This document shows, piece by piece, positions 16,312-42,465 of a DNA stretch of 64,000 nt. The first letter of the stretch is position 1. Every line of letters starts with the position of its first letter. This stretch comes from Candidatus Latescibacterota bacterium (lineage in GTDB: Bacteria > Latescibacterota > UBA2968 > GCA-2709665), in the NCBI GenBank assembly GCA_965205485.1, contig OZ242180.1:409292-473291 (forward strand), given 5' to 3'. Made by a program: the position numbers and the translations under genes. A model generated the notes under the pieces. It saw only the letters and a list, made by a program, of their open reading frames with translations. It searched no databases and was not told where the DNA came from.

Positions 16312-19300
16312 ATGCGTTCAATTCGAAAAAACCACAGTATACTGTTCATCCTTGGCGTTCTGCTCGCGCTGGCCGACGCGTCATTTGCCCAGAATCGCGG
16401 TTCGCTGATTACGATTGCAGGCGGCGGCGACCGGGAAGGCGAGAATATCCCCGCGACCGACCTTGCCCTGAGCGTCCCCCTCGGCGCCGCTACCAGCGCC
16501 GACGGCCACGTCTATATCGCCGATACCGGCACGCACCGCATCCGCAGGGTGGATGCGGTCACCGGGCAGGTCACGACCATAGCCGGAACCGGAGAGGCCG
16601 GATTCGCGGGCGACGGAGGACCCGCCGCCGAAGCGCAACTGGACAGACCCCAGGGCATCGCGGTCGATGAGGCCGGCAACGTATATATCGGCGATACGGG
16701 CAACCGGCGCGTCCGGCGCATCGACGCCGCAACGGGGATCATCACCACCGTCGCGGGAAGCGGCGAGTTCGGTTTCGACGGCGACGGAGGTCCGGCTGTC
16801 TCCGCCGTACTCGGCGAAATCGTCGCTCTGACTATAGGCCCTCGCGGCGGACTCTATATCGCTGACGGGCTGGACGGACAGGCGCGGGGCAACAACCGGG
16901 TGCGGAGGATCGACCTCGATACCGGCGTGATCACCACCCTTGCAGGCGACGGCGATTTCTCATTCGGCGGCGACGACGGCCCGGCGGTTGAAGCCGGACT
17001 GACGGTAGAAGACGTCGCAGTCGACGCGTCGGGAAATATCTTCATCGCGGACTTCAACAATTATCGCATCAGGCGTATAGACGGTGAGACAGGCATAATC
17101 AGCACTGTGGCAGGCCGCGGTCCCGTATTCGGAGGCGGCGGCGCATTCTCAGGCGACGGCGGACCGGCCACCGAGGCACGGCTCGATCTGCCCGGCGGCG
17201 TGGCCGTCGGCGTGGACGGAACCCTCTATATATCGGATACCGGCAACAACCGCGTCCGCGCCGTGGATTCCGGTACCGGGAATATCTACACCCTGGCGGG
17301 CACAGGCAATTTCGGATCCGCCGGTGACGGCGGGCCGGCGCCGCTCGCCGAACTCCGAGAGCCCTCTCGCGTGGTCCTGGACCCTGACGACAACCTGATC
17401 GTCGTGGATACCGGCAACAGCCGCATCCGAAAACTTCTCGACCCTGCTTTCCAGTCGCCCGTTCTCAGTCTGACCGCCGCCCGTGTCGACTTCGGAGCGG
17501 TCGTTGTGGAAGACCAGACGACGCGCACGTTTGCGATCGGAAACGTGGGGAGGCGCACCCTCACGCTGTCCAGCGCTTCGACCGACCGGCGGGAGTTCGT
17601 CCTTCTGAACGCATTCCCGGTCGAAATCGATCCGTCCGGGGAGACTGAAATTCAGATTCGGTTCAGCCCCCTGGACGAAGGTGTCGTGCAGGGAACGCTC
17701 ACCATCAATACCGACGATCCATGGCGTCCCGAAGTCACCGTCCCTCTCTCGGGAACGGGCGCGGCGCCGGACATCGGAGTTTTCCCCGAAAGCATCGAAT
17801 TCGATCGTACGTACGTGGGCCGTGAGCAGTCAATCGTCCTGCGGGTCGCAAACCTCGGCGCAGGCGTACTGACGGTCTTCCGCGCCGAACTGACAGACCC
17901 GGTACAATTCTCCGTCAGCCTGGACGATACCCTGCGCATCCCGTCGAGCCTTAGACAGAGCCTGGACGTCGTGTTCCGACCTGTCAACACAGGCACGCAG
18001 CGAGCGGAACTCACGCTGTACAGCAACGATCCCAACGACCCGGAGCTGGTCATACCCCTCCGCGGCTTCGGAAGGGAATCCCGGCCGGGCGGTTTCCTCG
18101 ACGCGGCGGCAGGCCTGAGGATGGCCGATAGCGGCGCCGGCTTCGGCGCCGCCTGGGCGGATTACGACGGGGACGGAGACCCCGACCTGTACGTGGTGCG
18201 CAGCCTGCAGTCCAACCTGCTCTACCGGAACGACGGGGACGGCTTTACGGAGGTGGGCTCCGTGGTTGGCGTGGCGGACGACGGCGACGGCAGCGCGGCC
18301 GCCTGGGCGGACATCGACGGAGACGGCGATCTGGACCTGTACGTCACGAACTTCGGACAGCCCAACCGGCTCTACCGCAACGATGGCAACCGATTCTCCG
18401 AAATCGCCGCGCAGGCCGGCGTGGACGACGGAGGAGACGGGTACGGCGCCGCCTGGGCGGACGTGGAGGGAGACGGCGACCCCGACCTGTACGTGGCCAA
18501 CTTCGGCGATAACCGGTTCTACCGGAATGAACGCGGCCGCTTTGTCGAAGCCGCCGCGGATGCCGGTCTGGACGACGACAACAGCAGCCTGCAGCCGGCG
18601 TGGGCGGACTACGACGGGGACGGCGACCCGGATCTCTTTCTTGCGAACAGCGGGCCGAATCGACTCTTCAGAAACGACGGCGGCAGCTTTGCGGACGCTT
18701 CGTCGGACGCGGGCCTGGAGGAACTCGGACTGGGCGGAGCGAGCTTCGGAGCGGCCTGGGGCGATTTCGATAACGACAGGGACCTGGATCTGTACGTGAC
18801 CTATTTCGGCGAAGGCAACCGCCTTTATGTCAACATCAACGGCCGGTTCGAGGAGTCCAGCAGCAGATTCGACGTGGCGGGACCGGACACCGTGGACAGC
18901 AGGGGCGCGGTCTGGGGTGATTTCGACAGTGACGGCGATCTGGACCTCTTCGTCTCCAATGCCGGAGTGAAGAACAATCTCTACCGAAACGAAGGCGGTA
19001 CCTTCACCGACATGGCTGACTCCTTCCGCGTGGCGGGCGGCGCCAACAGCCGCGGCGTGGCCCTGGCGGACTTCAACGGCGACGGCGGGCTGGACATCTT
19101 CGTGGTCGTTCAGGACGACGCCGACCATCTGTACCAGAACCGGGAATTCAATGGAAACTGGCTGGCCATTCGTCCGCGCGCCACAAGGAGCAGTCCGGAT
19201 GCCATCGGCACGCGATTTGAAATCGCATTCGACGGCACGGCCGCGACCCGGGAGATCACGGGCGGCGCGTCCTATCTTTCCCAGGACGCCCTGACCGCGG

Positions 19301-21030
19301 TCTTCGGCCTGGGAGACGCCAGCCAGGTCGATACCCTGACCGTTCGATGGCCGTCGGGCATCGCGCAGCGCCTCAGGAACATCGCCGTAAACACCGTCCT
19401 TGAAGTCACAGAAACGGCCCCGGCCCCGCCCGTACGCGTCGCGCTGGATGCCGCTGTGCCCGTTCTGGCGGCCAACGGCGAGGCGCGGACCCGAATCCGC
19501 GCCCGCGTCCTGGACGCCAGGGACGAAGTCGCGCTCATCGGCAACCGCCGCCTGATCTTCAGCGTCTCATCCGGCGACGGCGCGTTCGTGGGGAGCGATA
19601 CGGCGGCGGTGCGGGACGGGCTGGCATCCATCCTCTTTCAGGCCGGTATTACACCTGGCGACGTATCGGCAACCGCGCGGTTCCAGGGCCTTCCCCCCGC
19701 GCAGGTTACGATCCGCCTGCTGCCGCCCATCGGGCCGGACCACACGTCCATGCTCACGCTCGCCGGAATCGGCGGGAGTCAGAGCAGCTTCGGGGGTGAC
19801 GGCGGCAACGCCGACCAGGCTTTCCTGAACACCCCGAGGGGCGTCGCGGTCGCGGCAGACGGCGTCCTCTACATCGCCGACTCGGGCAACAATCGTGTGC
19901 GACGGGTCAACGCGGATGGCTCGATCAACACGATCGCCGGAGATGGAATCGGAATCTCCATCGGAACGGGGGGGCCGGCGACAGAAGCCAGTCTCGGCGA
20001 TCCCCGGGGCCTCGCGCTCACTCCGGAAGGCGATCTGATCGTTGGCGAAGTGAGCGGTCATATCGTGCGCCGGATCGACCTTTCGAGCGAGAACATCCTC
20101 GCCTTCGCAGGCAGGGACATCCCCGGTTACGGCGGCGACGGACGCGCGGCGGCGGATGCGAATCTGTCGGGCCCCGTGGGGGTTGCGGCGGACGCTCTGG
20201 GAAACATCTGGATTGCGGAACGCTTCAACCACAGGGTCCGCAAGGTGGACGCCAGCGGCATCATCTCCACTGCTGCCGGCAGCTTCCAGGAGGGTCACGC
20301 AGGGGACGGAGAACCCGCGACGATGGCTGCGCTGAACGGACCTGAAGGTGTTGCCGTAGATAGTCGCGGCCGCCTGTACATCGCCGATACGGGAAACCAT
20401 CGCATCCGCATGGTGGATACCGAGGGCATCATCTCCACGGTGGCCGGCACCGGAGACGCCGGCTTTTCCGGCGACGGCGGACCCGGCAAAACGGCCCTGC
20501 TGAACGGCCCTGTCGATGTGGCGGTGGACGACAACGGATACGTTTATATCGCGGACACCGGCAACCATCGGATACGGGTCCTGGACTTGAACCTTGGCAT
20601 CATACAGACCGTTGCCGGGACGGGATTTCCGGGATTCAACCAGGCCGAAGGCGCCGGTACCGAGACGACGCTGAATTCGCCGTCGGGCCTCGCCACCGAT
20701 CCCGAGGGCAGGGTCTACGTTGCCGATACGAACAACAACAGCATCCTTCAACTCACCGTAGACTTCCCCCCGGAATACCACCGCGAGGCCCCGCCCGTCC
20801 CGCCTCCGCCGCCACCTCCGCCTCCCGTGGATGGTCGGGCCGATTTCAATGGCGACGGCGCGGTTGACTTTGCTGACTTCATCCTCTTCGCGCGGGCATA
20901 CGGTTCCAGCGATATGCGTTATGACCTCGACGGCGACGGAACGGTCGGGTTCGGAGATTTTATCGCCTTCACCAACGCCTTCGAACAGACCCCGCCTACA
21001 GTGCGATTCCGGCCGGGAAGCCGTTTCTGA
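16312..21030 (+). CDS. Giant secreted multidomain protein: 6x NHL propeller, 2x choice-of-anchor-D-like Ig domains, FG-GAP/VCBS propeller plus UnbV/ASPIC C-terminal domain (CRTAC1-like), Big-like Ig domain, second 6x NHL propeller, poly-Pro linker, C-terminal dockerin-like module
   Basis: Signal peptide MRSIRKNHSILFILGVLLALADASFAQ. Repeated YIADTGNHRIRRVD-type NHL blades. Seven repeats of AAWADYDGDGDPDLYV(T/A)NFG..NRLYRN. A C-terminal DFNGDGAVDFADFILFARAYG...DLDGDGTVGFGDFIAFTNAF pair of Ca-binding dockerin-type repeats. Confidence 0.85.
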   Translation: MRSIRKNHSILFILGVLLALADASFAQNRGSLITIAGGGDREGENIPATDLALSVPLGAATSADGHVYIADTGTHRIRRVDAVTGQVTTIAGTGEAGFAGDGGPAAEAQLDRPQGIAVDEAGNVYIGDTGNRRVRRIDAATGIITTVAGSGEFGFDGDGGPAVSAVLGEIVALTIGPRGGLYIADGLDGQARGNNRVRRIDLDTGVITTLAGDGDFSFGGDDGPAVEAGLTVEDVAVDASGNIFIADFNNYRIRRIDGETGIISTVAGRGPVFGGGGAFSGDGGPATEARLDLPGGVAVGVDGTLYISDTGNNRVRAVDSGTGNIYTLAGTGNFGSAGDGGPAPLAELREPSRVVLDPDDNLIVVDTGNSRIRKLLDPAFQSPVLSLTAARVDFGAVVVEDQTTRTFAIGNVGRRTLTLSSASTDRREFVLLNAFPVEIDPSGETEIQIRFSPLDEGVVQGTLTINTDDPWRPEVTVPLSGTGAAPDIGVFPESIEFDRTYVGREQSIVLRVANLGAGVLTVFRAELTDPVQFSVSLDDTLRIPSSLRQSLDVVFRPVNTGTQRAELTLYSNDPNDPELVIPLRGFGRESRPGGFLDAAAGLRMADSGAGFGAAWADYDGDGDPDLYVVRSLQSNLLYRNDGDGFTEVGSVVGVADDGDGSAAAWADIDGDGDLDLYVTNFGQPNRLYRNDGNRFSEIAAQAGVDDGGDGYGAAWADVEGDGDPDLYVANFGDNRFYRNERGRFVEAAADAGLDDDNSSLQPAWADYDGDGDPDLFLANSGPNRLFRNDGGSFADASSDAGLEELGLGGASFGAAWGDFDNDRDLDLYVTYFGEGNRLYVNINGRFEESSSRFDVAGPDTVDSRGAVWGDFDSDGDLDLFVSNAGVKNNLYRNEGGTFTDMADSFRVAGGANSRGVALADFNGDGGLDIFVVVQDDADHLYQNREFNGNWLAIRPRATRSSPDAIGTRFEIAFDGTAATREITGGASYLSQDALTAVFGLGDASQVDTLTVRWPSGIAQRLRNIAVNTVLEVTETAPAPPVRVALDAAVPVLAANGEARTRIRARVLDARDEVALIGNRRLIFSVSSGDGAFVGSDTAAVRDGLASILFQAGITPGDVSATARFQGLPPAQVTIRLLPPIGPDHTSMLTLAGIGGSQSSFGGDGGNADQAFLNTPRGVAVAADGVLYIADSGNNRVRRVNADGSINTIAGDGIGISIGTGGPATEASLGDPRGLALTPEGDLIVGEVSGHIVRRIDLSSENILAFAGRDIPGYGGDGRAAADANLSGPVGVAADALGNIWIAERFNHRVRKVDASGIISTAAGSFQEGHAGDGEPATMAALNGPEGVAVDSRGRLYIADTGNHRIRMVDTEGIISTVAGTGDAGFSGDGGPGKTALLNGPVDVAVDDNGYVYIADTGNHRIRVLDLNLGIIQTVAGTGFPGFNQAEGAGTETTLNSPSGLATDPEGRVYVADTNNNSILQLTVDFPPEYHREAPPVPPPPPPPPPVDGRADFNGDGAVDFADFILFARAYGSSDMRYDLDGDGTVGFGDFIAFTNAFEQTPPTVRFRPGSRF
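18100..18700. repeat. Intragenic near-identical tandem repeats (~147 bp units encoding FG-GAP/VCBS blades)
   Basis: DNA segments GCCTGGGCGGA(T/C)TACGACGG(G/A)GACGG(A/C)GA(C/T)CCCGA(C/T)CTGTACGTG recur at ~18153, 18300, 18447 and 18595. Confidence 0.7.
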
Positions 21031-21032
21031 CG

Positions 21033-21668
21033 ATGCAACGGGCGCTCATCCTGCCGGCCGACGATCCGGGAATCGTCCGGACTGCCGATTGTATCCGTTC
21101 CGGTGGCGTGGTTGTCTATCCTACCGAAACCGTGTACGGCCTGGGCGCCGATCCGTTCAATCCCGTCGCTTTCGAACGCATCTTCAGCCTCAAGGGCCGG
21201 GAATCGGAAAAGGGCCTGATCCTGCTCATCCGCGGCAGTCAGGACCTGGACGCGCTCGTCGCGGACATTCCACGGGCTGCTGAATTCCTGATGGACGCAT
21301 TCTGGCCCGGTCCGCTCACCCTCGTGTTTCCCGCATCGCCCAGCCTGCCGGATCACCTGCTCGGGTTCACGTCCACAATTGCCCTCCGCGTGTCCGATGC
21401 GCACGTCGCCAGCTCATTACTGCAGCATGCCGGCGGCCCAATAACCAGCACCAGCGCCAACCATTCGGGTCTTTCCCCCGCCCGAAGCGCGCAAGAAGCC
21501 GCCAACGCCCTTGGCGGCGACGTCGATCTGATCCTGGACGGCGGTTCGGCGCCCGATTCTCGTCCCTCCACCCTCGTCGACGTCTCCCTGCCGCATCCAC
21601 GAATCCTCCGACCCGGCCGCATCGCGGAATCGAAAATCAACCGGGTACTGACTCTGGAATCAGATTGA
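21033..21668 (+). CDS. tsaC: L-threonylcarbamoyladenylate synthase (YrdC/TsaC type)
   Basis: YPTETVYGLGADPFN, ...KGRESEKGLILLI, ...GPITSTSANHSG: the YrdC fold signature. 211 aa. Starts 3 nt after the giant-gene stop. Confidence 0.8.
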   Translation: MQRALILPADDPGIVRTADCIRSGGVVVYPTETVYGLGADPFNPVAFERIFSLKGRESEKGLILLIRGSQDLDALVADIPRAAEFLMDAFWPGPLTLVFPASPSLPDHLLGFTSTIALRVSDAHVASSLLQHAGGPITSTSANHSGLSPARSAQEAANALGGDVDLILDGGSAPDSRPSTLVDVSLPHPRILRPGRIAESKINRVLTLESD

Positions 21669-21878
21669 CGCAGGCAAGTTGTGAGCGTATTCTTTGATCG
21701 CGGCATGAAAGGAAGAATATCACTGCTGTCCAAGATAGTTTGAAAAAGACGATCTTGGATACGTAAGTACCTGGTTTTCTTGAAAGTCGTTTCGAAGTAC
21801 CAATGCAGGTCCCCGTCTTTTGGCCACGGCTGTCCAGGACAGAAACCGATTTGTGACCGGTGCGGTTGGCGTTCCCGG

Positions 21879-22024
21879 GAGCGAGGGCATCCTGCCCTCG
21901 ACATCGGATAACTCGTCGCACACGGTGTCTTCCGTGAACCGGTGTCGGATTGAATGGACCCGTCAGTCTCTCGACGCGAATGGGGGTCGGTGACGCGAAG
22001 TTCGAGGGCAGGATGCCCTCGCTC
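21879..22024. repeat. Inverted-repeat element: two 23-bp arms (GAGCGAGGGCATCCTGCCCTCGA / TCGAGGGCAGGATGCCCTCGCTC) around a 100-bp spacer, flanked by 21-bp direct repeats at 21742..21763 and 22058..22079
   Basis: The arms are exact reverse complements of each other, and each is internally palindromic. Flanking GAAAAAGACGATCTTGGATACG / GGAAAAGACGATTTTGGACAGG match at 19/22 positions. Confidence 0.7.
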
Positions 22025-22087
22025 CGGTTGCAGGTGGTTCATGTCGTGACAGTGGTTGGAAAAGACGATTTTGGACAGGTGCGGAAG

Positions 22088-22291
22088 AATATGAAACTGA
22101 ACGTCGACAAGGAAGCCGACGCCCTTTATCTGCGTCTCGACGATTCTCAAATAGTCGAATCCGAGGAGGTTTCCCCGGGAGTTGTACTCGACTACAACGC
22201 ATCGAATGAAGTCGTGGGCGTGGAGCTGCTCCATCTATCAAAGCGCTCATCCAAGCTGAATCTTTCCGCATTGCAGTTCGAGACGGTCTGA
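22088..22291 (+). CDS. DUF2283-family small protein
   Basis: MKLNVDKEADALYLRLDDSQIVESEEVSPGVVLDYNASNEVVGVELLHLSKR matches the characteristic DUF2283 profile (Y.D.e.DalYi.l......s.e..pgvilDyd..G.lvGIEIL.as.r). Lies in a lower-GC islet. Confidence 0.6.
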   Translation, partial: NMKLNVDKEADALYLRLDDSQIVESEEVSPGVVLDYNASNEVVGVELLHLSKRSSKLNLSALQFETV

Positions 22292-22510
22292 TCGCGTCAG
22301 CGTGTCGGAGCAATTGCCCAGGCGATTCCCACGCCCGCAAATCGGTCGAGTGATATCACGCTTCCAGCCCGTCGGCAAATCCCTGACAGTTTCCCTGCCT
22401 CAATCCTGCCTCCCTGACGCACCATTGCCGGTCTGGTCGTGTCACGGGGACCCCGGCATCCCGTCCTGATACAGGCGTCCCGATCTATTCCTGACGTAGA
22501 GGAAGCCGGT

Positions 22511-24514: not shown

Positions 24515-27500
24515 TTATTCCGAATTGCCTGTGATCAGGATACGAATGACGATGTTTGCACGGCCCCCCTTCCCGTCGCCGGACCGCACGATCACGGTAT
24601 ATCCGCGTTTCCTGTTGAAGTCATACGTGCCCTTCGTCAACAACTGCCCGGAGCCGGGGTCAATTTCGAAGTACTCCGCATCGGTGCCCCACAGGCTGTA
24701 CGTGAGCACGTCACCGTCCGTATCGCTCGCAGTGATCGGATCCCCGATCGGTTCTCCCGGTGGCGTGCCGCCGGCCACGGCAAGCGTTGCGGGCTGCACG
24801 GGCGCAAACGCGGGCATGCGGTTCACGCGTTCTCCGAAGCGCCGGGCGAATGCGACGAAATCGCCAAACGTGATCCGGCCGTCACTGTCCAGGTCAAACC
24901 TGGCATCATGCCCCTCATCGCCCTCTGCGGATCCAAACGCGCCGGAGAACAGCACAAAGTCGGCGAAGTCCACCACCCCGCTCCCGTCGAAATCAGGCGA
25001 TAGCGGCGCGGGAGCATGAAGCAATACGCTCACCGTTCGCGTCATCGCCTCCGGATGCTCCCCGCGCACCAGGTCCGCTCCCGCCAACCGGACCTCCGTC
25101 TCCCTAAACCCCTCCGTCGTCCTGAAGCGCACTGTTCCCACCTGCCCGCTGTCGACCGCGGCCCCGCCGCTCAGCGACGAAACGCCGATCTGCACGAACG
25201 TCGAGTCCTTCGCCACCAGCGCCGTCACGCCCGGCAACGCATCGCCCGCGTCGAAGCCCTCATACACAACCTGCGTCGTGTCATAGCCCACCCGGAAATC
25301 CACACCGCGCGTTCCCCGGATATCCGCGCCGAATATCTGTATGGAGACGACTCGACCTGATTCGACGCGCATCGTCCGGAGGTCCTGGTCTTTCTCCGAC
25401 GCATCCAGGTCCAGCGAGAGGGAGAACAGGTCATACAGGACCAGGACCTCCGTCCGTACCAGCCCCAGGGTCAACCAGTCGCCGTCACCCGATGCGCTGT
25501 TCGACCGCACCTGCACCTCGTATTCCGTGTCGGGGTCCAGACCCTCGATGATCGCGCTCGTGTCCGTCACGTCCTGGGGCCCGTCCTTCCATACGCCTTC
25601 GCTGCCTTCACGATACCGCACGTCGTAGCCCGTAACGGGTTCCCCATCATCATTGGTCGGCGCCGCCCAGCCGATGGTCACGCTGCCCGGCGACGTCTGT
25701 GTCACCGCGGGTTCCACCGGCGGTGGCGGCGGCGCGAGCGTACTCACCGGCTTCAGGGACGTCCACGCGCTGTGCTCCGAGTTGCCGCTGGACCGCACCT
25801 GCACCTCGTATTCCGTGTCCGCGTCCAGACCCTCTATGGTCGTGCTGGTTCCCCTCACGTCCTGGGGGCCGTCCTGCCATTCCCCCTCGCTGACTTTACG
25901 GTACCGCACGTCGTAGTTCCTGATCAGAGGACCGTCGCCGGTCGGCGCCTTCCATTGTAACGCCACGCTCGTTGTCGACACTCCAGTCGCCGTCGGCGAC
26001 ACCGGAGGCAGGGGCGGTGTTGGCGGCGGTGGCGGGGTCGGAGGAGGTGGTGGGGGAGGAGGAGGTGGTGGTGGAGGTGGCGGAGGAGGTGGTGGGGGAG
26101 GTGGCGGCGGCAGTTGCTCGTTAGCGTCCTCGCCGAAGACCCAGGGACGGGCCTGCTTGATCGCCAGGATATTCTCACTGGTGATCTTGAACTCGATCTC
26201 CATCGCGAAGGGCTCGCCGGATGCGGGGTTGTACAACCCCTCGAAGTGGTCGTGGATCACGTAGAGGTGATCGCGCAGCTGACGCATCTGGTCTCGGCTC
26301 ATCAACAGTTCCCCGCGCTCTACCAGGTTCGAGAGTGCTCGGATGATGAGTCCATCTCCCGGCAGGAGGACGATCTCCTCGGGTACGGAGTGCGCCTCGG
26401 GATTGGTGACCAGGTCCTCGCCGAGTTGCGAGTTGACGTAGTGTCGGCCCACAATGGAAGTGACGGGGTCGAAGCTGACCGCCACCCCGTTTACCCGCTC
26501 ATCGGAGAAGTTGGGATGGACCAACACGCCCATCGCGGCCGCGAGGTGGTCGACGCGGTGAAACTCCCGCTCCGAAAACGCCCGGAAGGTCCAAAGGCCG
26601 GCGAGCACCTGCTTGAACGACTTGTCAATCCCGTCCTCCGTGGTCTCCTCCGGGTGCTGCGTCTTGGAGTCGTACAGCCCGGCGCCGTTGAACCCGGGAA
26701 GGTCCTCGTTGTTGGTGCTCGACCGGTACCGCAGCGACGTCTCCGCAGGGAAGGTTGCGTGCATGGCGGTGAGGGCGTCGACCATCCACTGGGGCGTCTC
26801 GGCGTCCTTGATGGCATCACGCAGGTCGTCGAGCATCTCGTCCTGGATATCCAGATCGGTCCGGAACTTCGGGTGGGCCAGAATCGCCTCGACGGCCTCG
26901 ACGAGCATCGTGTCGGCCGCCAGTGTGAGTTTCTCGTCAGCGGGCGCGCTCCCCATGCCAAAAACGGTCTCCTCTCCCAACGTTTGTTTCATGAACTCGT
27001 CATAGAAGTAGAAGGGTATGGCGAAGCCGTCGCGTACGGTGCCCTCCGGGAATCCGAGCGTCCGCAGGACCGCCAGATTGGCCGCCTTGACGCCGAAGGC
27101 CTTCCAGTCGTCGAAGCCGATCTGGTCGAGGGGCGTGATCTCCGTAATCGAGAGATCGCGCTGCGGCGTCTGGGTCTCGGCCGGGCGGGACGACTCGTAA
27201 TGGGCCTCGACTTCCTGAAGGGTTGCCGCCCGCAGCTCCCATTGGCGCTCCGTCACTTCGTACCTGACGTAGCTCCCCTCGAGGGAAATGACGTCGGCGT
27301 GGTCGAGGGCGTCCTTCACGTAGGCGTTGGGTATGCCGTCCTGCACCGCGCGCAGGTTTACGTGCGAGAGCGGCGTCTGGGGCGCGGCGGTAAGGATGCC
27401 GGCCACGCGGGGCAGCTCGTTGGGCAGCGTCTCGGAGACGATGATCTCGCGAGGATGGGGGCGTTCGTCCGCCTCCAGGATCCTCAGCCGCCCGTAACCC

Positions 27501-28447
27501 GTTCCGGTGTTGAGCGCCAGGAACTCCACGTCGCCGAAGAGTTCGGAATCGTACACCAGGGGGATCCGGGATGCCCGAAGCTGGGACAACCGATCCTGGA
27601 CAAGCGGAAGCAGAATGCTGTCGACGTGCAGGGTGAGGTTGTTATCAATCACGCCCATGCTGGCAGCGAGCACAGTGTGCAACTTCTCTGCCTGAGGGAC
27701 CGACTCTGCAGCCAGCCGCGGAAAGTATTCGTAGTAGAAGCCCCCGACAGCGCGGCCTTGCACCGTGAATCCCGGATCGTAGGTGATGGTGCCGGTAATC
27801 GCTCCTTCTCGCTGCAGGCCCACCGCATCAAAAAAGTACCGGTGGCTCTGGTACCGCTTCGTGTTCATGAAGTAAACCGCCGGATGCGCGGTATCCAGGT
27901 TCACCAGAACGAACTTCAGTACGGTTCCCCCGTAGAGCCCGGTTCCGAGTGCCTGAAACGCCGCGAGGTCGGGGACGGCCACAGCGCCATCGTTCGGATC
28001 CGAAATCGTGGCAGGGTTGACGGGGTTCATGCTCCCCAGGTTGTCGAGTTCGGTGACGTCGTCGATGCAGTCGCCGTCGACGTCGGCCGGGTCGGCGATC
28101 TGGTACTTCTCCACCCGGTAGCGCTCCGCGGACAAGGCCGCGAGGTTTTCCGACAGCGTGGTCGTGCCCGCCTCCCCCCGGGTCACCGCCACCGGAACCT
28201 GCAGCTCCGTGCCGTCCACGTCGAATGTCACGTAGAGTACGAAGTAGTCGTCGGTCGTAGACGTGACCACGATGGGAACCGCCGTCACTGTGATCTCCGC
28301 CGGCGTCGGGTCATAGCCGCCGCCTTCACACGGCTCCTGCAGTGTTCGAAACGAAGGGAAGAAGCTTCGCCCTTCAACGGCGACAGTGAACAGAGTTAAG
28401 GACAGCACCAAAACAGGAGGAATGGTCCGTACGCTTGTCAATGGCAT
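24515..28447 (-). CDS. Giant secreted multidomain protein: N-terminal region, PPDK_N/PEP-utilizer-like ATP-grasp domain, 25-residue poly-Pro linker, 2x fibronectin type III, cohesin-like domain, dockerin-like module, cadherin-like domain
   Basis: Start taken at MPLTSVRTIPPVLVLSLTLFTVAVEG (signal peptide); the longer ORF-track start runs into the 32-bp repeat. AFGVKAANLAVLRTLGFPEGTVRDGFAIPFYFYDEF and SLRYRSSTNNEDLPGFNGAGLYDS resemble the PPDK_N nucleotide-binding motifs. WKAPTGDGP...YDVRYR...EYEVQVRS x2 are FN3 domains. DFDGSGVVDFADFVLFSGAFG...DLDSDGRITFGDFVAFARRFG is a dockerin pair. The C-terminal DTDGDVLTYSL...FEID is cadherin-like. Confidence 0.85.
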   Translation of the reverse strand: MPLTSVRTIPPVLVLSLTLFTVAVEGRSFFPSFRTLQEPCEGGGYDPTPAEITVTAVPIVVTSTTDDYFVLYVTFDVDGTELQVPVAVTRGEAGTTTLSENLAALSAERYRVEKYQIADPADVDGDCIDDVTELDNLGSMNPVNPATISDPNDGAVAVPDLAAFQALGTGLYGGTVLKFVLVNLDTAHPAVYFMNTKRYQSHRYFFDAVGLQREGAITGTITYDPGFTVQGRAVGGFYYEYFPRLAAESVPQAEKLHTVLAASMGVIDNNLTLHVDSILLPLVQDRLSQLRASRIPLVYDSELFGDVEFLALNTGTGYGRLRILEADERPHPREIIVSETLPNELPRVAGILTAAPQTPLSHVNLRAVQDGIPNAYVKDALDHADVISLEGSYVRYEVTERQWELRAATLQEVEAHYESSRPAETQTPQRDLSITEITPLDQIGFDDWKAFGVKAANLAVLRTLGFPEGTVRDGFAIPFYFYDEFMKQTLGEETVFGMGSAPADEKLTLAADTMLVEAVEAILAHPKFRTDLDIQDEMLDDLRDAIKDAETPQWMVDALTAMHATFPAETSLRYRSSTNNEDLPGFNGAGLYDSKTQHPEETTEDGIDKSFKQVLAGLWTFRAFSEREFHRVDHLAAAMGVLVHPNFSDERVNGVAVSFDPVTSIVGRHYVNSQLGEDLVTNPEAHSVPEEIVLLPGDGLIIRALSNLVERGELLMSRDQMRQLRDHLYVIHDHFEGLYNPASGEPFAMEIEFKITSENILAIKQARPWVFGEDANEQLPPPPPPPPPPPPPPPPPPPPPPPPTPPPPPTPPLPPVSPTATGVSTTSVALQWKAPTGDGPLIRNYDVRYRKVSEGEWQDGPQDVRGTSTTIEGLDADTEYEVQVRSSGNSEHSAWTSLKPVSTLAPPPPPVEPAVTQTSPGSVTIGWAAPTNDDGEPVTGYDVRYREGSEGVWKDGPQDVTDTSAIIEGLDPDTEYEVQVRSNSASGDGDWLTLGLVRTEVLVLYDLFSLSLDLDASEKDQDLRTMRVESGRVVSIQIFGADIRGTRGVDFRVGYDTTQVVYEGFDAGDALPGVTALVAKDSTFVQIGVSSLSGGAAVDSGQVGTVRFRTTEGFRETEVRLAGADLVRGEHPEAMTRTVSVLLHAPAPLSPDFDGSGVVDFADFVLFSGAFGSAEGDEGHDARFDLDSDGRITFGDFVAFARRFGERVNRMPAFAPVQPATLAVAGGTPPGEPIGDPITASDTDGDVLTYSLWGTDAEYFEIDPGSGQLLTKGTYDFNRKRGYTVIVRSGDGKGGRANIVIRILITGNSE
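25320..25920. repeat. Tandem duplicated ~300-bp FN3-encoding modules inside the giant gene
   Basis: Two segments share long identical DNA stretches (CTGCACCTCGTATTCCGTGTC...GTCCAGACCCTC...CACGTCCTGGGG), mirrored by the paired ORF-track shadows at 25341..25628 and 25653..25916. Confidence 0.7.
25990..26110. repeat. GGN-rich microsatellite-like tract encoding a 25-residue polyproline linker (minus strand)
   Basis: GGTGG/GGAGG triplet run of ~110 bp. Confidence 0.8.
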
Positions 28448-35951: not shown

Positions 35952-37535
35952 ATGATTGGCCAGCAGAGTACAAATGGTTGGGACAGGGCGATTCGGAGTC
36001 GCAAGAGCGATCTGATCTCACGGTTGGAGTCCATCTACGGCAACAATGAAGACCTGATTGAAGAACGCCTCGGCGCCCTCCTGGAGACCGTGACTCAATT
36101 CGGAGAGACCTTCGGCGAGAGGGACGTCAGCTTTGTCAGGGCGCCGGGCAGGCTCAACACGGTGGGTATGCACGCCGACCACCGGGGCGCCTTCATCAAC
36201 CCGATTTCCCTCGACAAAGAGATACTCATCTGTTTCTCCCGAAGAGAAGATGACCGCGTGGAAGTCCGCAATCTGGACCCGGCCTATGGAGACCGTCGAT
36301 TCCGGTTGTCAGACATTTATCCGGAAGCGCCAATCCGTTCGGACGCCGAGTGGCTGGACTGGACGCAGGAGAAAACCGACGAACGCAAGGCCGCGGGTGT
36401 GAACGAAGACTGGATCACCAAGCTTCAGGCGCCGCCGGCCTACCTCTACACCCGATACCCCGCGAAGCGACTCCGCGGGTTCGACGGTGTCATGGGAAGC
36501 AGCCTGCCCGACATGGGTGGGCTGAGCTCTTCGTCCGCGGTCATTGTCGCGACCACCGAAATCATGACACAGATCAACGATATCGACCTGGACGACGGGC
36601 AGTTCGTGAGGTACGCGGGCACCGCGGAGTGGTACGTGGGCACCCGCGGGGGTTTCGGCGACCACGCAGCGATAAAATGCGGGCAACTTGGCAAAATCAC
36701 CCACATGAAGACCCTGCCGGAATTGATGATCGACGCCTATCTTCCGTTCCCGGACGGTTATCAAATCATCATCTTCGACTCGGGCATACAGGCGAACAAG
36801 ACCGGCGGCGCGGGGCAAAAATTCAACGAGAAGACGGCGACGTATGAAATTGGAGAGGTCTATCTCCGAAGCTATCTCGAAACGCACCACTCCGATGCGA
36901 TCCGGGGGGTAGTGGCGGCCAGGAAGGATCTGGATATCGAGAAAAAGTTCCACCTCGGCGACGTTATCGAATGTCTCGACCAACCCGAGATCTACGCGCT
37001 GATACAATCCTTGCCGGAACGGATCGACCAGCGTGAGCTCCTGCGCCAGCTACCGGACCAGGAAGCATTTCTCAAACAGCATTTCGCCACCCACGATGAA
37101 CCGGCCGGCGGCTACGAGATTCGCATGGTCATCGCGTACGGCATCGCCGAATCCGCGCGAAGCAGGAATCTCAAGGACGTCCTGAACAGGAACCGCGTGG
37201 ATCTGTACGGGCAACTGATGAACGTCTCCCATGACGGCGACCGCATCCACCTGGACGCGCCCCGATTCGACCCGGAGAAAGACCTGCACCTCCAACCGGG
37301 CGACTACAACTGCAGCATCCCCGAAATCGACGAGATGGTCGACCTTGCAATTGATGCGGGAGCGGTCGGTGCGCAGATTTCCGGCGCCGGTCTTGGAGGC
37401 AGCATGATGGTCCTCGTCGAATCAGGAGGCGTCGAAGGTATCGTCGAGGCCATGCGGGCGCGGTATTATCAACCCCGCGGGATCCTGGAAAGACTGACGG
37501 TCGCGTCTCCGGTTCAGGGGGCAGGGGTGTTGTAG
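35952..37535 (+). CDS. GHMP-family sugar kinase (galactokinase / N-acetylhexosamine- or heptose-kinase-like)
   Basis: APGRLNTVGMHADHRGAF (the galactokinase-type PGRVNLIGEHxDY motif), GHMP motif SSLPDMGGLSSSSA, and a C-terminal GAGLGGSMMVLV. Start at the ATG at 35952, preceded by an AGGA RBS. 527 aa. Confidence 0.75.
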   Translation: MIGQQSTNGWDRAIRSRKSDLISRLESIYGNNEDLIEERLGALLETVTQFGETFGERDVSFVRAPGRLNTVGMHADHRGAFINPISLDKEILICFSRREDDRVEVRNLDPAYGDRRFRLSDIYPEAPIRSDAEWLDWTQEKTDERKAAGVNEDWITKLQAPPAYLYTRYPAKRLRGFDGVMGSSLPDMGGLSSSSAVIVATTEIMTQINDIDLDDGQFVRYAGTAEWYVGTRGGFGDHAAIKCGQLGKITHMKTLPELMIDAYLPFPDGYQIIIFDSGIQANKTGGAGQKFNEKTATYEIGEVYLRSYLETHHSDAIRGVVAARKDLDIEKKFHLGDVIECLDQPEIYALIQSLPERIDQRELLRQLPDQEAFLKQHFATHDEPAGGYEIRMVIAYGIAESARSRNLKDVLNRNRVDLYGQLMNVSHDGDRIHLDAPRFDPEKDLHLQPGDYNCSIPEIDEMVDLAIDAGAVGAQISGAGLGGSMMVLVESGGVEGIVEAMRARYYQPRGILERLTVASPVQGAGVL

Positions 37536-37560
37536 AGTGTTGTCGCGCACGGTCGAAAAC

Positions 37561-37593
37561 AAAAAAGGAGCCGGAAATTCCGGCTCCTTTTTT
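37561..37593. terminator. Bidirectional rho-independent terminator AAAAAAGGAGCCGG-aaatt-CCGGCTCCTTTTTT
   Basis: Perfect 10-bp stem with A- and T-runs, between convergent genes ending at 37535 (+) and 37615 (-). The same hairpin core recurs at 43003..43037. Confidence 0.7.
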
Positions 37594-37614
37594 GTTTTGC
37601 CAACCCGGCTGCGA

Positions 37615-40600
37615 TTACTTGAGCAACATCAACCGCCTGGTGCCCTGAAACTTACCCGCAACCGAGATCCGATAGAAGTAAATTCCACTCGAAACCGATA
37701 CGCCGCGGTCGTCCATACCGCTCCACTGCACCGTATACCGTCCGGGCGCCTGGCGCTCGCGCACCAGCGTTCGAATTTCCTGACCCAGCAGGTTGTAGAT
37801 CCTGAGTAACACGTCGCCGCCTTCAGCCAGGTCGTACGGAATGTTGGTCTGCGGGTTGAACGGATTCGGATAGTTCTGGTGCAGCGCGAACTCCGTGGGT
37901 GTGCTCTGCACGTCCAGCGCGCCAAGCGTCACCACCGGGTTCTGCAGCTGATTCCCGTCGAACACCACGCCCTGTGCGATCTCGAAGCGGGCGACCTCCT
38001 CGAACTCTCTCAGAACCTGGAACGTGAAGGTCACCAGGGCGCCTTCGCCGCTCACCGTTCCCGACTCGGTAATGAGGTTCACCACCGAGACCCGACCCTC
38101 TTCAGGCCAGTTCCTGAACAGCGGCGTCTCACCCCCCTCGGACTTCAGCAGATCGTTGTCGGCGGGTACGGCGCTGACGAACTCAAACTTGTCAGCGTCA
38201 TACATCAGCTCCAGACCGTAGCCGTTTAGCGATTTGGCGTTGGCCATGGACACCGTCAACGAAATCGTCTCGCCAACCAGCACCTTGTCGCCGGCCAACT
38301 CGAGCGTCATCTCCGTATCGGCGTTCGCACCCGGACGCCGCGGAACCACCGCCAGCTTGCTGCCGGCAGGCAACACCGCCGTGCGACCGAATGTCGCTGC
38401 CGCCGCTACGAAGTCCGCGAAGTTGATCACGCCGTCGTCGTTCACGTCGGCCTGCGGGTTGTAGTTTTTATCGCCCTTCCGGCTGCCGAAGGCCGCACCG
38501 AAGGTGACGAAGTCCTCAAAGTCGACCTCGATGCTGCCGCCTTGCGCAGGCAGCGCCATCAGGTAGACGGGATCCCCGTTGGCGTCCACGAAGGACACAC
38601 GGACGGAGATGCCTGTAACCGTGATCAGATCGCTCATCGCGACGTTGTTATCGTCGAATGCGTCGATGCGATAAACCAGCGAGCTTACGCCGTCCGGCAG
38701 GTGGTCGTCGGTGAACCGGTTGGATCCCGGAGCCAGCGTGGCGATCTGCTTGAGGCCGTCGGCAGAAGCGCCTCGCATCACCGTGTAGCCCTTCACACCC
38801 AGGATCGGGACGTTGTAGCCGTTATACGGAATGGAGCCAACAACATGATCGCTGGCCGAGGCCGTCCACCGCAGCACCACACCGCCTGCGCCTTCACCGG
38901 AAGCGTCGGTAACCGCGGCGGGAGCGATGTCGTCAATGGCTGCCACCGGCTCCTCCGTGGCCGTGCGGGCGGACGACAGAAAACTGCCCGCGGACGCATG
39001 GCCGGCGGTCCGGATGTTGGCCGGAATATTGGCGCTGCCGATCAGCCCGCTCACGTCGGGATTCGCCGGCGCGAAGATGACATTCTTCCGATCGCCAATG
39101 AGCGCCTTGACGTAGTCTTCAGGCGCGTTGAACCGATCGTTCAGCTCTTCGTCCGTCAGAAGCTCCGCCTCGGGCATACCCAGCAACTGCACCGTCTGCC
39201 GGATGCTCTCCTTCGTGAACACGCGCTTGCCGGCCGTGGTCACCTCGGATTCTCCCGTACCGGTCACCGCCGTGACGCCCCAGTTGGTGGCCACGTTGTC
39301 AATTGCGGGAACGATCACGGTCTGCATGTCGCCGCCCGCGTCGCCCATTTCGTCACCGGCGTCAGCCGAGAAGCTGACCCTCGTCCACTCCATCCACTCC
39401 ATCCTGGGCGCTTCCAGATCCACAAGATTGCCATCTTCATCCGTGGTCTGCGTGACCTCAACTTCACGCTCGATCCGGTAGTGAGTCACCGCATCGTGCT
39501 GCGCGGAGTTCGGGAAGCTGACCACGACAATGCCGCCCTGGTCGCCCTGCCCGTCCGCGCCCCTGTAGTCCTGCACCACGATATTGGCCGGCGCTGCAGG
39601 CGCGCCCGGATCCGGGCCGTCTCCGTCGCCGGATACGATGCTGACCGTTACGCTGCCCGCGAGGGCGCCGGTTGTCGCGTCGTCGCCCGTTCCGGTTTCA
39701 TAATCCTCTGCAACGGTCCTGACGCTGATCGTCGCGCTGCCGCCCGCGTCGGAGGCCACCGCCCCGTACGTGGCCCCTTCGATGCCGGTCACCATCTGCT
39801 GGCCGGAAGGCACGGTCACCGCGGCATTGCTGGACGCGAAGGTGAAGGCAATCGATTCATAATCCTTCGAGTCCGTATTGTTGTCAATCCTCAAACTGGG
39901 GTTGGCGAACGAGTCGGTCGGTACCACGTGGACCGAAAACGCACCGGCCACGTTCTCAGTCGAGATCTCATCCTCGATGGCCGTGAGGGTGAACTTCGAA
40001 AACTCCGCGACCTCGATGTTGATCGGCTTGGCCGCCTGGCCGCTGATACGCAGCGTGTAGGCACCGGTGGCGGGATCGTAGTCGCCCTCGGCCGCGTACA
40101 GGATCACGCCGGTGAGCGGCTTCTCGGACTTGAACTTGACGGTCCGCGAACCCGCGTGCCAGCCGTCGCCGTTCAGGATGGCGGCCTTCGCCACCATCCC
40201 CAGGGCGGCCAACTCGGCGGGTAGCGCGAACCCGGGCGCCGGAGACACGCCGGCGCCGCTGAAGCTCGCGGCTTCAAGCGCTTCGGCCTGGTCGCCGGAA
40301 ACGATCGCGGCCAGCGCTGACGGCGTGTGATACGTCACCGCCCGAACGTCGGCGGCGTCACTATTCTGTTCCTTTTCGATACGTGTCAGCGTCGTGTCGA
40401 GCACGGACAGCGATATGGCGACGTCCACGCCGGCGACTTGCTTCTCTTCCAGATCAGGATCCGGCACAACCTTGAACATATCGGCGTCCGGATTCCCGAA
40501 ACGCTCGGTGAACGTGAGCGTACCGCCGTCCGCCATTCTGACGTTACCCGCCAGGTCGAACGCCAGAATTTGCAGATGATACCGCTGGCTCTCGACGAAG

Positions 40601-42465
40601 CTGGTATCGTCTACCGGCCAGGTGACCAGTTCGTCCACCGTTTCCAGCCGGACGTGTCCGGGTCCCCAGGCCTGCACGATGGCCGGCCCGCCGCCCTCCT
40701 CGTGATAACGTATGGACAGCGAATCCAGCTCTTCATTGATCTGGAAGACCGGATTCTTGGTGGTCAGGTTGATTGTGGGCGCGTCCTCGTTGTCCGCGTC
40801 CCCGGGCGCGGTCGGGGCTATTTCTTCGCCGTCAGCGCCCGCCAGGCCGGATCCCGTGGGGAACAGATTGCTGATCGTCGGAGCCTTCCAGTCGTACCGA
40901 ATGCCCGATAGGCTCATCTCGGACGCGTTGCCGAGGCTGTCCCAGACCTCGATCTTCAGGTCGTTTTGTACACCGCCAGGTTCGTCGTATCGCCAGAAAA
41001 TCCGCGGCTCGTATGCGGTAGTTGTTGCGCGATCGTAGTCTTTCTGGGTAGGTGGCAGACCCTCGTCAGTAGAGGTGGCCGGATCATCGGTACTACCTTG
41101 ACTGTACGTGCTGTCTCCATGGGTAATTATGACCGAATCGGGCACTTCACTCAAATCAATCCTTAGATTTTTTCCTGTATAAAACACCCTTCTTGCCTGC
41201 TCACCCGGCAATGGAATGTAGTTGCCGATGGTCCTCCCGAGAATCGCGATCAGAGGATCGTGCGATCCGGCCGCGATACTATCGGGATTGGGATAACTGA
41301 CCGTTATCGTCGGCGCGGTCGCGTCTCCGATAATCGGGACGTTTGTCGCGGTTGTCGCATCGGCTGCGACTGTCGGGAATGCCGTATCGGCTGCGAGAAC
41401 GCCATCGGTCCCGTGGAGGACTTTCCAATCGGCAGCGGCGGGCGCCGTAGCCGTACCGCCCACGTTACCGGCTTCGTCCACGAGATAAGCGAAGAGTTCG
41501 AGCCGCTGATTGTCCGCAAACTGCCCCGCTTCAATTTTCGTCTCAGCGCTCGGATTCGGGCTGTACAGCCTGTCCCCGCGCAGCGTGACCTTCAACCGCG
41601 CATCGTCCCTGAAAGCGGCGGCTCTCGCCCCTTCCTCATTACCGACAAAGGGGCGATCCGATTCCTGCAGGGCCAGGATCGAGTCTGTGGGCACAAGGCC
41701 TACCTCGATCCTGTCCGCCCTCGCGCCCAGAATCGAGGCGGTATTCAGTTTCAGCACCGCTTTGAATACCTTGTCTGTGATGATCTGGATCTCTCGGACG
41801 AGTTCCGGGTTGCCGCCCGTCGTATCGGTCAGTACGGTGTTTAACCCGGCCAGGTCCAGATCGATACTCGTAAATACGCCTGCATGAATCGGGCGAGCGC
41901 CGTCGACGCCGAAGAGTACCCCGTCACCCACGCGTGTGGCGCCGAAACCGGCGGTTGCGGGCGTGATCTTCCGGTTCCTCATCAGGTTGTTCAAGGGTTC
42001 TTCGTTGTCCGGATCCACCACAACCTTCAAGGCGTGGTTGGTGGCGCTCTCCAGACCGGCGTTGGCGACAACACCAATCTTGACCTTGAAAGTATCGACG
42101 CCTGACGTCGCACCGTCGCCCTTTACGATCTGATCCGTGTCGGTTGTTCCATTATAATTGTAACTGTAATACACCTTGGTCGCAAAATCGCTGGCGACAG
42201 TGGTGATATCAACGCCTGTGGCGGTCTCACTGACGCTGGAGTCGATCACCGCCAGTTGGAAACCCTGATCGAGCCGGCCGTCGTAGCACAGGACCCGAAC
42301 TCTGATCGTATCACCGATCGCGGCCCATTCATTGGCCTTCGGCGTGTCGACGCGAATCAGGATACCCGGCGTGGCGGCCACCTCAACCTGCGCCGGGGCT
42401 GCACCAACCATTCCGAAAACCAGCAGAAGCGCTATACTTAGACCTGAAACTGTCCTTAACAGCAT
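37615..42465 (-). CDS. Giant secreted T9SS cargo protein (1616 aa): many Ig/Big-like beta-sandwich repeats, dockerin-like module, cohesin-like domain, C-terminal T9SS (Por secretion) sorting domain
   Basis: Signal peptide MLLRTVSGLSIALLLVFGMVGAAPAQ. C-terminal NYPNPFNPQTNIPYDL...VLLRIYNLLGQEIRTLV...GIYFYRISVAGKFQGTRRLMLLK is the canonical T9SS type-A CTD. DVNDDGVINFADFVAAAATFG is dockerin-type. TEMTLELAGDKVLVGETISLTVSMANAKSLNGYGLELMYDADKFEFVS...GEGALVTFTFQVL has a cohesin-like pattern. Confidence 0.85.
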   Translation of the reverse strand: MLLRTVSGLSIALLLVFGMVGAAPAQVEVAATPGILIRVDTPKANEWAAIGDTIRVRVLCYDGRLDQGFQLAVIDSSVSETATGVDITTVASDFATKVYYSYNYNGTTDTDQIVKGDGATSGVDTFKVKIGVVANAGLESATNHALKVVVDPDNEEPLNNLMRNRKITPATAGFGATRVGDGVLFGVDGARPIHAGVFTSIDLDLAGLNTVLTDTTGGNPELVREIQIITDKVFKAVLKLNTASILGARADRIEVGLVPTDSILALQESDRPFVGNEEGARAAAFRDDARLKVTLRGDRLYSPNPSAETKIEAGQFADNQRLELFAYLVDEAGNVGGTATAPAAADWKVLHGTDGVLAADTAFPTVAADATTATNVPIIGDATAPTITVSYPNPDSIAAGSHDPLIAILGRTIGNYIPLPGEQARRVFYTGKNLRIDLSEVPDSVIITHGDSTYSQGSTDDPATSTDEGLPPTQKDYDRATTTAYEPRIFWRYDEPGGVQNDLKIEVWDSLGNASEMSLSGIRYDWKAPTISNLFPTGSGLAGADGEEIAPTAPGDADNEDAPTINLTTKNPVFQINEELDSLSIRYHEEGGGPAIVQAWGPGHVRLETVDELVTWPVDDTSFVESQRYHLQILAFDLAGNVRMADGGTLTFTERFGNPDADMFKVVPDPDLEEKQVAGVDVAISLSVLDTTLTRIEKEQNSDAADVRAVTYHTPSALAAIVSGDQAEALEAASFSGAGVSPAPGFALPAELAALGMVAKAAILNGDGWHAGSRTVKFKSEKPLTGVILYAAEGDYDPATGAYTLRISGQAAKPINIEVAEFSKFTLTAIEDEISTENVAGAFSVHVVPTDSFANPSLRIDNNTDSKDYESIAFTFASSNAAVTVPSGQQMVTGIEGATYGAVASDAGGSATISVRTVAEDYETGTGDDATTGALAGSVTVSIVSGDGDGPDPGAPAAPANIVVQDYRGADGQGDQGGIVVVSFPNSAQHDAVTHYRIEREVEVTQTTDEDGNLVDLEAPRMEWMEWTRVSFSADAGDEMGDAGGDMQTVIVPAIDNVATNWGVTAVTGTGESEVTTAGKRVFTKESIRQTVQLLGMPEAELLTDEELNDRFNAPEDYVKALIGDRKNVIFAPANPDVSGLIGSANIPANIRTAGHASAGSFLSSARTATEEPVAAIDDIAPAAVTDASGEGAGGVVLRWTASASDHVVGSIPYNGYNVPILGVKGYTVMRGASADGLKQIATLAPGSNRFTDDHLPDGVSSLVYRIDAFDDNNVAMSDLITVTGISVRVSFVDANGDPVYLMALPAQGGSIEVDFEDFVTFGAAFGSRKGDKNYNPQADVNDDGVINFADFVAAAATFGRTAVLPAGSKLAVVPRRPGANADTEMTLELAGDKVLVGETISLTVSMANAKSLNGYGLELMYDADKFEFVSAVPADNDLLKSEGGETPLFRNWPEEGRVSVVNLITESGTVSGEGALVTFTFQVLREFEEVARFEIAQGVVFDGNQLQNPVVTLGALDVQSTPTEFALHQNYPNPFNPQTNIPYDLAEGGDVLLRIYNLLGQEIRTLVRERQAPGRYTVQWSGMDDRGVSVSSGIYFYRISVAGKFQGTRRLMLLK

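Follow-up and report, generated by a model that had tools for sequence, protein, structure and literature searches.

Cohesin, dockerin and type IX sorting modules in three giant proteins of Candidatus Latescibacterota: a possible non-cellulolytic surface-display system

Three giant secreted proteins encoded in a 64,000-nucleotide stretch of a Candidatus Latescibacterota genome (assembly GCA_965205485.1, contig OZ242180.1, positions 409,292 to 473,291; the whole stretch is hereafter called the window) carry dockerin and cohesin modules, and one of them ends in a C-terminal domain (CTD) for sorting by a T9SS (type IX secretion system). The proteins are named P1 (16312..21030, plus strand, 1572 aa), P2 (24515..28447, minus strand, 1310 aa) and P3 (37615..42465, minus strand, 1616 aa), and a first-pass annotation of the window had drawn the same three open reading frames (ORFs). 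The reading preferred here, with an estimated probability of roughly 55%, is that P1, P2 and P3 are scattered components of a lineage-wide, non-cellulolytic cohesin-dockerin system for surface display in Candidatus Latescibacterota. Three features distinguish it: an anchor that joins one cohesin to a T9SS CTD, a compact cohesin-dockerin cassette, and adhesion-type or eukaryote-like cargo replacing enzymes. Cohesin-dockerin pairs are familiar above all from Gram-positive cellulosomes, whose parts they hold together, and from synthetic biology, where they serve as tools.

Module identity in P1, P2 and P3

When the whole window was translated in six frames, the strict F-hand pattern D.[DNS].[DNSG]G.[VIL].[FILVMY].[DE][FLIVY] was matched five times, whereas shuffled residues gave 0.01 matches on average and at most 1. 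Two of the matches lie in P1, two in P2 and one in P3, and none was found elsewhere in the window. A dockerin of the type I-like family PF00404 is defined by a duplicated F-hand of about 22 residues, each consisting of a 12-residue Ca2+ loop (D/N in positions 1, 3 and 5, D/E in position 12) and a helix; P1 and P2 display two canonical loops each, and P3 displays one canonical and one degenerate loop. In alignment the loops and helices of these modules line up with those of the reference dockerins 2y3n_B and 1ohz, and the dockerin families of P2 and P3 match each other with an hhalign probability of 99.1.

P1 begins with a signal peptide (Sec-type signal peptides were judged by eye from the sequence in all three proteins), followed by an NHL propeller, two Ig domains of the choice-of-anchor-D/ASH kind, an FG-GAP_3 propeller with UnbV_ASPIC, a Big_1-like Ig domain, a second NHL propeller, a poly-Pro linker and a C-terminal dockerin. 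The Pfam and NCBIfam scores were 243 bits for NHL, 194 for FG-GAP_3, 64.8 for UnbV_ASPIC and 91 for choice_anch_D. The dockerin (20836..20991, plus strand), preceded by the poly-Pro linker (approximately 20791-20832, plus strand), shows two canonical Ca loops, DFNGDGAVDFAD and DLDGDGTVGFGD, with the strict F-hand motif at 20842-20880 and 20923-20961. As an isolated module it scored 23.6 bits with Pfam Dockerin_1, above the cut-off of 22.9. The P1 dockerin reached 55 bits with a hidden Markov model (HMM) of the dockerins of the lineage; with NCBIfam dockerin_GC it scored 25.5 bits, under the cut-off of 29 for that model. The first-pass description of P1 as ending in a dockerin pair is thus borne out.

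P2 consists of a signal peptide, a conserved module of about 740 aa ending in a PPDK_N-type ATP-grasp, a poly-Pro linker of about 40 residues, two FN3 domains, a cohesin (25013..25441, minus strand, aa ~1003-1145), a dockerin (24824..25003, minus strand, aa ~1149-1208) and a C-terminal cadherin (24530..24805, minus strand, aa ~1215-1306), and a linker of about 6 residues connects the cohesin to the dockerin. The two Ca loops of the dockerin are DFDGSGVVDFAD and DLDSDGRITFGD. The isolated dockerin scored 21.1 bits with Dockerin_1 (cut-off 22.9) and 31.8 bits with EF-hand_1, its family profile matched the solved dockerin 2y3n_B of Pseudobacteroides cellulosolvens Cel48 at 5e-10, and its helices are placed at segment positions 186-195 and 219-227 in the AlphaFold2 (AF2) model of the segment. 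The cohesin scored 16.1 bits on PF00963, below the cut-off of 24.1, and its fold is supported by a confident AF2 model together with structure matches. Among 67 homologues of the cohesin-dockerin region, PF00963 was found in 16 (best E 4e-9), Dockerin_1 (PF00404) in 33, Cadherin in 40 and Alginate_lyase2 in 5. The predicted fold and the family profile agree with the order of a cohesin followed by a dockerin pair that had been assigned to P2.

P3 comprises a signal peptide, a region of about 1290 aa, a half-degenerate dockerin, a cohesin and a T9SS type A CTD. For its N-terminal 1289 aa no Pfam family and no significant PDB sequence match were found (a single match at chance level, E 0.48), and an exact-sequence look-up of P3 gave no match. 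In the dockerin-like module (38371..38568, minus strand, aa ~1300-1365) loop 1 is degenerate and loop 2 is canonical (DVNDDGVINFAD); isolated, this module scored 15.3 bits with Dockerin_1 (cut-off 22.9), and its family profile matched 2y3n_B at 1.6e-7. The cohesin (37891..38316, minus strand, aa ~1384-1525) reached 34-36.9 bits on PF00963, above the cut-off of 24.1. The CTD (37618..37872, minus strand, aa 1532-1616) carries the motifs NYPNPFNP and SGIYFYRI and a terminal K, and scored 31.2 bits with TIGR04183 (cut-off 23), 32.2 bits with FlgD_ig (cut-off 27) and 22.1 bits with Por_Secre_tail (cut-off 27). An AF2 model of residues 1281-1616, built with 63 homologues, had a pLDDT of 87.8, with the CTD as a beta-sandwich at a pLDDT of about 90, and its top Foldseek matches in the PDB were nearly all cohesins, among them 2vo8 (TM-score 0.84), 6kgc (0.79) and the non-cellulosomal Archaeoglobus fulgidus cohesin 2xdh (0.77). 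Dockerin-like repeat, cohesin and T9SS CTD therefore follow each other in P3 as first annotated.

Both cohesins are predicted to form a nine-stranded jelly-roll beta-sandwich with cohesin topology. A generic Ig or FN3 fold of these regions, or an absence of Ca loops from the dockerin-like segments, would have spoken against the first-pass assignments; Foldseek returned cohesins, the loops were found, and the assignments survived HMM (PF00963, PF00404 and TIGR04183), profile and structure-prediction tests taken together. By family, the modules of P1, P2 and P3 belong to the dockerins, the cohesins and the T9SS CTDs. In Pfam and NCBIfam scans no T9SS CTD was detected in P1 or P2.

In the Pfam scans of the three proteins no catalytic domain of a glycoside hydrolase (GH), no polysaccharide lyase, no carbohydrate esterase and no carbohydrate-binding module (CBM) was found, and the earlier statement that GH modules are lacking stands. 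The sole match with a GH name was Glyco_hydro2_C5, an Ig-like accessory domain, which scored 19.7 bits (cut-off 32) on the Big_1-like domain of P1. The domains listed in the first-pass annotation are all present; the large PPDK_N or phosphoenolpyruvate (PEP) synthase-type ATP-grasp of P2 had been overlooked.

With three modules (P2 cohesin, P2 dockerin and P3 dockerin) scoring below cut-off, P1, P2 and P3 might be independent adhesins whose modules are evolutionary remnants, or spacers of a generic Ca2+-binding and beta-sandwich kind, and whose proximity is due to chance. This would also agree with the lack of an operon and of synteny described below, and Peer et al. (2009) reportedly found non-cellulosomal dockerin-like modules to be often without known function. 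Both cassettes are however strongly conserved, with Ca-loop and core residues that do not vary across hundreds to thousands of sequences, and cohesins and dockerins occur together in the same genomes under a strict positional grammar. Independent adhesins are for these reasons considered very unlikely.

Conservation of the cassettes and their order

A search with the C-terminal dockerin-cohesin-CTD cassette of P3 gave 1920 matches, nearly all annotated as Cohesin, Por_Secre_tail and FlgD_ig, and the order of dockerin before cohesin was invariant in the family. The cohesin-dockerin cassette of P2 gave 213 matches, in which the unit, with or without the cadherin, comes after FN3, cadherin, LRR, beta-propeller, CARDB or ASH domains; the family consensus keeps the cohesin-dockerin order and a short PSP linker, and the architecture of P2 is preserved at the related locus L008. 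The homologue searches yielded no protein of more than about twice the query length, the longest having 582 aa for a query of 337 aa and 132 aa for one of 64 aa, so that giant orthologues are absent from the cassette matches and the domain censuses are biased to fragments; the census of cargo obtained with the dockerin profile likewise consists of short fragments only. The long-read ENA assemblies of loci L007 and L008 break giant genes into many small calls.

Full-length orthologues of P3 with 53-69% identity were found in six metagenome-assembled genomes (MAGs), four labelled Candidatus Latescibacterota and two labelled Gemmatimonadota (isolate names RHO1_bin_28 and RHO3_bin_7). The dockerin profile of the lineage also matched short ORFs of MAGs labelled Gemmatimonadota and Candidatus Poribacteria. 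Additional dockerin-tailed genes are common in the related loci, and their frequency in the lineage accounts for the presence of three such genes within 26 kb of the window.

The positions of the modules follow a regular pattern. A complete dockerin at or near the C-terminus, together with a signal peptide and no CTD, was found in P1, in P2, in two genes of locus L001 (22180-25008 and 25187-26560), in one gene of L003 (13679-16480) and in two genes of L008, and the sequences of dockerin-tailed proteins in related loci end exactly at the dockerin. In the lineage loci the CTD occurs only directly after a P3-type cohesin, and the P3-type half-dockerin always precedes that cohesin.

The fixed order within each cassette can also be explained in cis, the adjacent cohesin and dockerin of P2 and of P3 binding or packing within the chain as a rigid, Ca2+-stabilised stalk or hinge, and the dockerin of P1 then being a Ca2+-dependent stabiliser or binding a non-cohesin ligand, all without any assembly between proteins. 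The conserved order and short PSP linker of the P2 family and the invariant order of the P3 family both agree with such units. So do the AF2 models of the three-domain segments, which are compact, with a high pLDDT across the 6-residue linker of P2 and a pTM of 0.79 for P2 and 0.78 for P3, above what is expected of freely jointed domains. On the other hand, many proteins of the lineage, for example P1 and the L001 and L003 genes listed above, have a lone C-terminal dockerin with no cohesin in cis, which therefore needs a partner in trans if it is functional, and a linker of 6 residues may not let the dockerin of P2 reach the canonical face of its neighbouring cohesin. Purely intrachain units are accordingly considered rather unlikely.

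In four of the related loci (L003-L006) two full-length P3-type paralogues with 40-48% identity are present within 5-8 kb, each with dockerin, cohesin and CTD, as in L004 (5736-10631 and 14423-19471) and L006 (2277-6980 and 11573-16411). In L001 (2223-6197) and L002 (2436-6341) the upstream paralogue, with 48% identity over aa 1-1368, lacks cohesin and CTD and ends right after the P3-type dockerin. Downstream of the short paralogue in L001, 6374-7372 reads as four tandem repeats of about 80 aa and is followed by a DUF559-like ORF, and the short paralogue may be a genuine partner that has only a dockerin, or else may have been cut short by insertion of a repeat element.

These pairs resemble the paired T9SS-secreted surface-layer (S-layer) genes tfsA and tfsB of Tannerella, and the P3 family might by analogy with TfsA/TfsB be the main surface-layer or giant-adhesin protein, with half-dockerin and cohesin cross-linking neighbouring P3-type molecules (the a and b paralogues) and not unrelated cargo. 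The short paralogue of L001 and L002 fits a protein held by the cohesin of its partner, and the P3-type dockerins form a subclass of their own, as would suit a lattice of this kind. Yet the window has a single P3-type gene, the short paralogue is perhaps just truncated by the repeat element, P3 is not similar to known S-layer proteins in Pfam or in the PDB sequence search, and the same observations are compatible with the docking of cargo. A lattice built of P3-type molecules alone is on this balance clearly unlikely.

A proposed model of anchor, adaptor and cargo

As the module assignments were upheld and the cohesin-like regions did not turn out to be generic Ig or FN3 folds, a reading of P3 as anchor, P2 as adaptor and P1 as cargo is reasonable. 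By architecture alone, P3 has a cohesin adjoining a surface-anchoring signal, as an anchor does, and P2 has one cohesin and one dockerin, as an adaptor does; the dockerins of P1 and P2 lie at or near the C-terminus behind Pro-rich linkers.

In the proposed system export of P3 would run first through Sec and next through the T9SS, its type A sorting domain would be cleaved off, and the protein would be fixed to the surface of the outer membrane. Its cohesin would be held close to the cell surface, since this single cohesin immediately precedes the anchor. P1 would be a dockerin-only cargo plugging in a Ca2+-dependent manner into a cohesin, and would present two NHL propellers, an FG-GAP/ASPIC propeller and Ig domains on a proline-rich linker. 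P2 would be both cargo and adaptor, combining the ATP-grasp module, FN3 and cadherin domains with one cohesin and one dockerin, and could lengthen the assembly or give it branches. The analysis showed the identity, predicted fold, conservation and positional grammar of the modules, while the binding itself, the pairing of dockerins with cohesins, the surface location and the T9SS processing are all putative steps of this model. The domains displayed would be adhesion-type and eukaryote-like rather than carbohydrate-active.

Several observations weigh against this proposal. The first Ca loop is degenerate throughout the P3-type dockerin family, leaving the dockerin of P3 down one Ca site. The cohesin families of P2 and P3 match each other weakly, with an hhalign probability of 9.8; their relationship rests on predicted structure, and cohesins so little alike may accept different dockerins. 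P1 and P2 have no CTD that would take them across the outer membrane of a diderm cell. The adjacency of cohesin and dockerin in P2 and P3, and their compact models, could reflect packing in cis and not docking in trans. No component of the T9SS machinery (SprA, PorU/V, GldKLMN) was found among the scanned ORFs of the window. An operon or dedicated locus was rejected, as housekeeping and metabolic genes intervene and P1, P2 and P3 are encoded on both strands. When 19 proteins of the window were searched by tblastn against the six loci with P3 orthologues, P3 and isolated dockerins were the only ones found. The clustering within 26 kb, which the first-pass annotation had considered striking, consequently does not point to a dedicated locus, the genes between being unrelated and synteny not being kept.

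The ATP-grasp module of P2

The conserved module of about 740 aa in P2 (aa ~38-773, within 26108-28447, minus strand) includes the PPDK_N/PEP synthase-like ATP-grasp (26138..27097, minus strand, aa 451-770), which scored 58.2 bits with Pfam PF01326 and matched a PDB PEP synthase at 1.8e-4 as a single sequence and at 5.6e-9 as a profile. A nucleotide-binding-like motif, RYRSSTNNEDLPGFNGAGLYDS, is retained in the module, and no swivel-His domain was found in it. Its representative homologues number 3384, with 1115 at E<=1e-30, and occupy varying positions in proteins of 800-3800 aa rich in FN3, cadherin and Big_2. No dedicated Pfam or NCBIfam family exists for the module. Once it was found with SLH and once immediately before a T9SS-type CTD (P0484), so that the cohesin-dockerin cassette of P2 appears to fill the slot of an anchor; such fusions suggest, as indirect support from sequence, a surface location. 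Of the items in the window, this widespread and apparently extracytoplasmic ATP-grasp module may be the more novel one.

Genes of the window

Pfam scans of about 40 other large ORFs of the window showed that P1, P2 and P3 are surrounded and separated by genes for LepA, Wza/Wzz, a MetE-like protein, Sua5, RecD2, an amidohydrolase, an inositol-phosphatase-like protein, a hexapeptide transferase, a galactokinase and a corrinoid methyl-transfer cluster, among others. The third-position GC of the P1, P2 and P3 ORFs is high, 0.76-0.79. The maximum in the window, 0.82, was observed in an ORF of 582 aa between P1 and P2 (22682-24430, plus strand), for which no Pfam match was found.

The genes at 43338-51364 (minus strand) encode a homocysteine S-methyltransferase-like protein, MTHFR with DUF5981, a RACo corrinoid activase with a 2Fe-2S domain and a URO-D-family (MtaA/MtbA-like) methyltransferase, and the run looks like a corrinoid-dependent demethylation module. 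Similar sets of genes, with MR_MLE enolase-superfamily proteins and several GFO/IDH/MocA oxidoreductases, lie at both ends of the window (3-7044 and 52964-57263) and are probably duplicated catabolic clusters of the sugar-acid or inositol type. Each end also has one weakly neutral-ceramidase-like ORF (2017-3390, plus strand, and 55989-57263, minus strand), and a GntR/FCD regulator is encoded at 52028-52795.

Discussion

The logic of the cellulosome is shared by the proteins described here in that cargo terminates in a dockerin and the anchor has a cohesin beside a signal for attachment to the wall. A classical cellulosome was nevertheless rejected. P2 and P3 have one cohesin each, with no tandem-cohesin primary scaffoldin and no CBM, and it is the lack of a multi-cohesin scaffoldin, of GH and CBM domains and of any cargo of carbohydrate-active enzymes (CAZymes) that excludes the system from this class. 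Non-cellulosomal cohesin and dockerin modules have reportedly been described widely by Peer et al. (2009). Compared with these in general, for example the A. fulgidus cohesin 2xdh, the present case is particular in that its modules are linked to a T9SS CTD and to adhesion domains or repeats of eukaryote-like kind.

Among known anchors P3 is most readily set beside ScaE of Ruminococcus flavefaciens, with one cohesin and an LPXTG sortase signal, and SdbA, OlpB and Orf2p of Clostridium thermocellum, with one or more cohesins and SLH, all of which likewise have the cohesin directly before a C-terminal anchor. In contrast to ScaE and SdbA/OlpB, the anchor of P3 is the T9SS type A CTD of a diderm and not SLH or a sortase signal, an N-terminal region of about 1290 aa and a half-degenerate dockerin are added before the cohesin, and no CAZyme partners were seen. 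P2 resembles ScaC of R. flavefaciens, which has one cohesin and one dockerin, but P2 also carries cargo (ATP-grasp, FN3 and cadherin) and its linker is only about 6 residues long. The best structural matches of both the P2 and P3 cohesins were modules of the Clostridium perfringens 'toxin complex' proteins NagH/NagJ (GH84) and NanJ (GH33), with the structures 2vo8, 2w1n and 2jh2. These are also non-cellulosomal and have cohesins beside FN3 in large secreted multidomain proteins; they are however glycoside hydrolases of a Gram-positive pathogen, whereas here no GH is present and the CTD is that of a T9SS-bearing diderm.

The closest precedents are in-silico inferences, as is the system proposed here. 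In 'Ca. Stygibacter' (Cloacimonadota), a 3755-aa scaffoldin with a T9SS CTD, tandem cohesins and CBMs was inferred, and dockerin-tailed proteins with signal peptides were GH18, GH57 and peptidases (Williams et al. 2021, PMC8542988). That organism belongs to the same FCB superphylum, and in both cases a CTD-bearing cohesin protein is proposed on the cell's own surface with C-terminal dockerins on its partners, in contrast to which the present case has single cohesins, a cohesin-dockerin cassette and adhesion-type or eukaryote-like cargo. As relayed by the papers that cite it, Farag 2017 described dockerin or cellulosome-affiliated proteins in Latescibacteria; dockerins and cohesins are not mentioned by Youssef 2015. 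Since such systems had already been inferred in silico in Latescibacteria and Cloacimonadota, the idea of a cohesin-dockerin assembly in the first-pass annotation is less new than it implied. Its module assignments by contrast were upheld by HMM, profile and structure prediction, and its interpretation is supported in part, the clustering of the three genes not being a sign of a dedicated locus.

The phyla of the relatives, Latescibacterota, Gemmatimonadota and Poribacteria, are typical of sponge microbiomes, and the names of the relatives suggest sponge symbionts; for the window itself a sponge origin is suggested by names alone. In the sponge Rhopaloeides odorabile, MAGs of Latescibacterota and Gemmatimonadota were found to be enriched in cadherin, FN3 and eukaryote-like repeats, and the puzzle was raised that sponge symbionts have many eukaryote-like proteins and few classical secretion systems (Robbins et al. 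2021). No published link between cohesins or dockerins and sponge symbionts was found in the literature searched. Docking on a T9SS-anchored cohesin protein might be the missing display route for NHL, LRR, FN3, cadherin and WD40 proteins that lack a CTD in Latescibacterota, Gemmatimonadota and Poribacteria, a proposal that must be called very doubtful. Cargo would in that case either be captured after secretion or travel through the T9SS already bound, in the periplasm, to a CTD-bearing partner. If true, such a route would resolve the puzzle raised by Robbins et al. 2021.

Being small, the modules lend themselves to recombinant expression, and the key claim is therefore testable without culturing the organism. 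If the surface-display reading is true, cohesin-dockerin interaction would be extended to a new type of cell envelope and to a new purpose, surface display for attachment or host interaction, and a concrete mechanism would be provided by which uncultured, probably sponge-associated bacteria expose eukaryote-like proteins.

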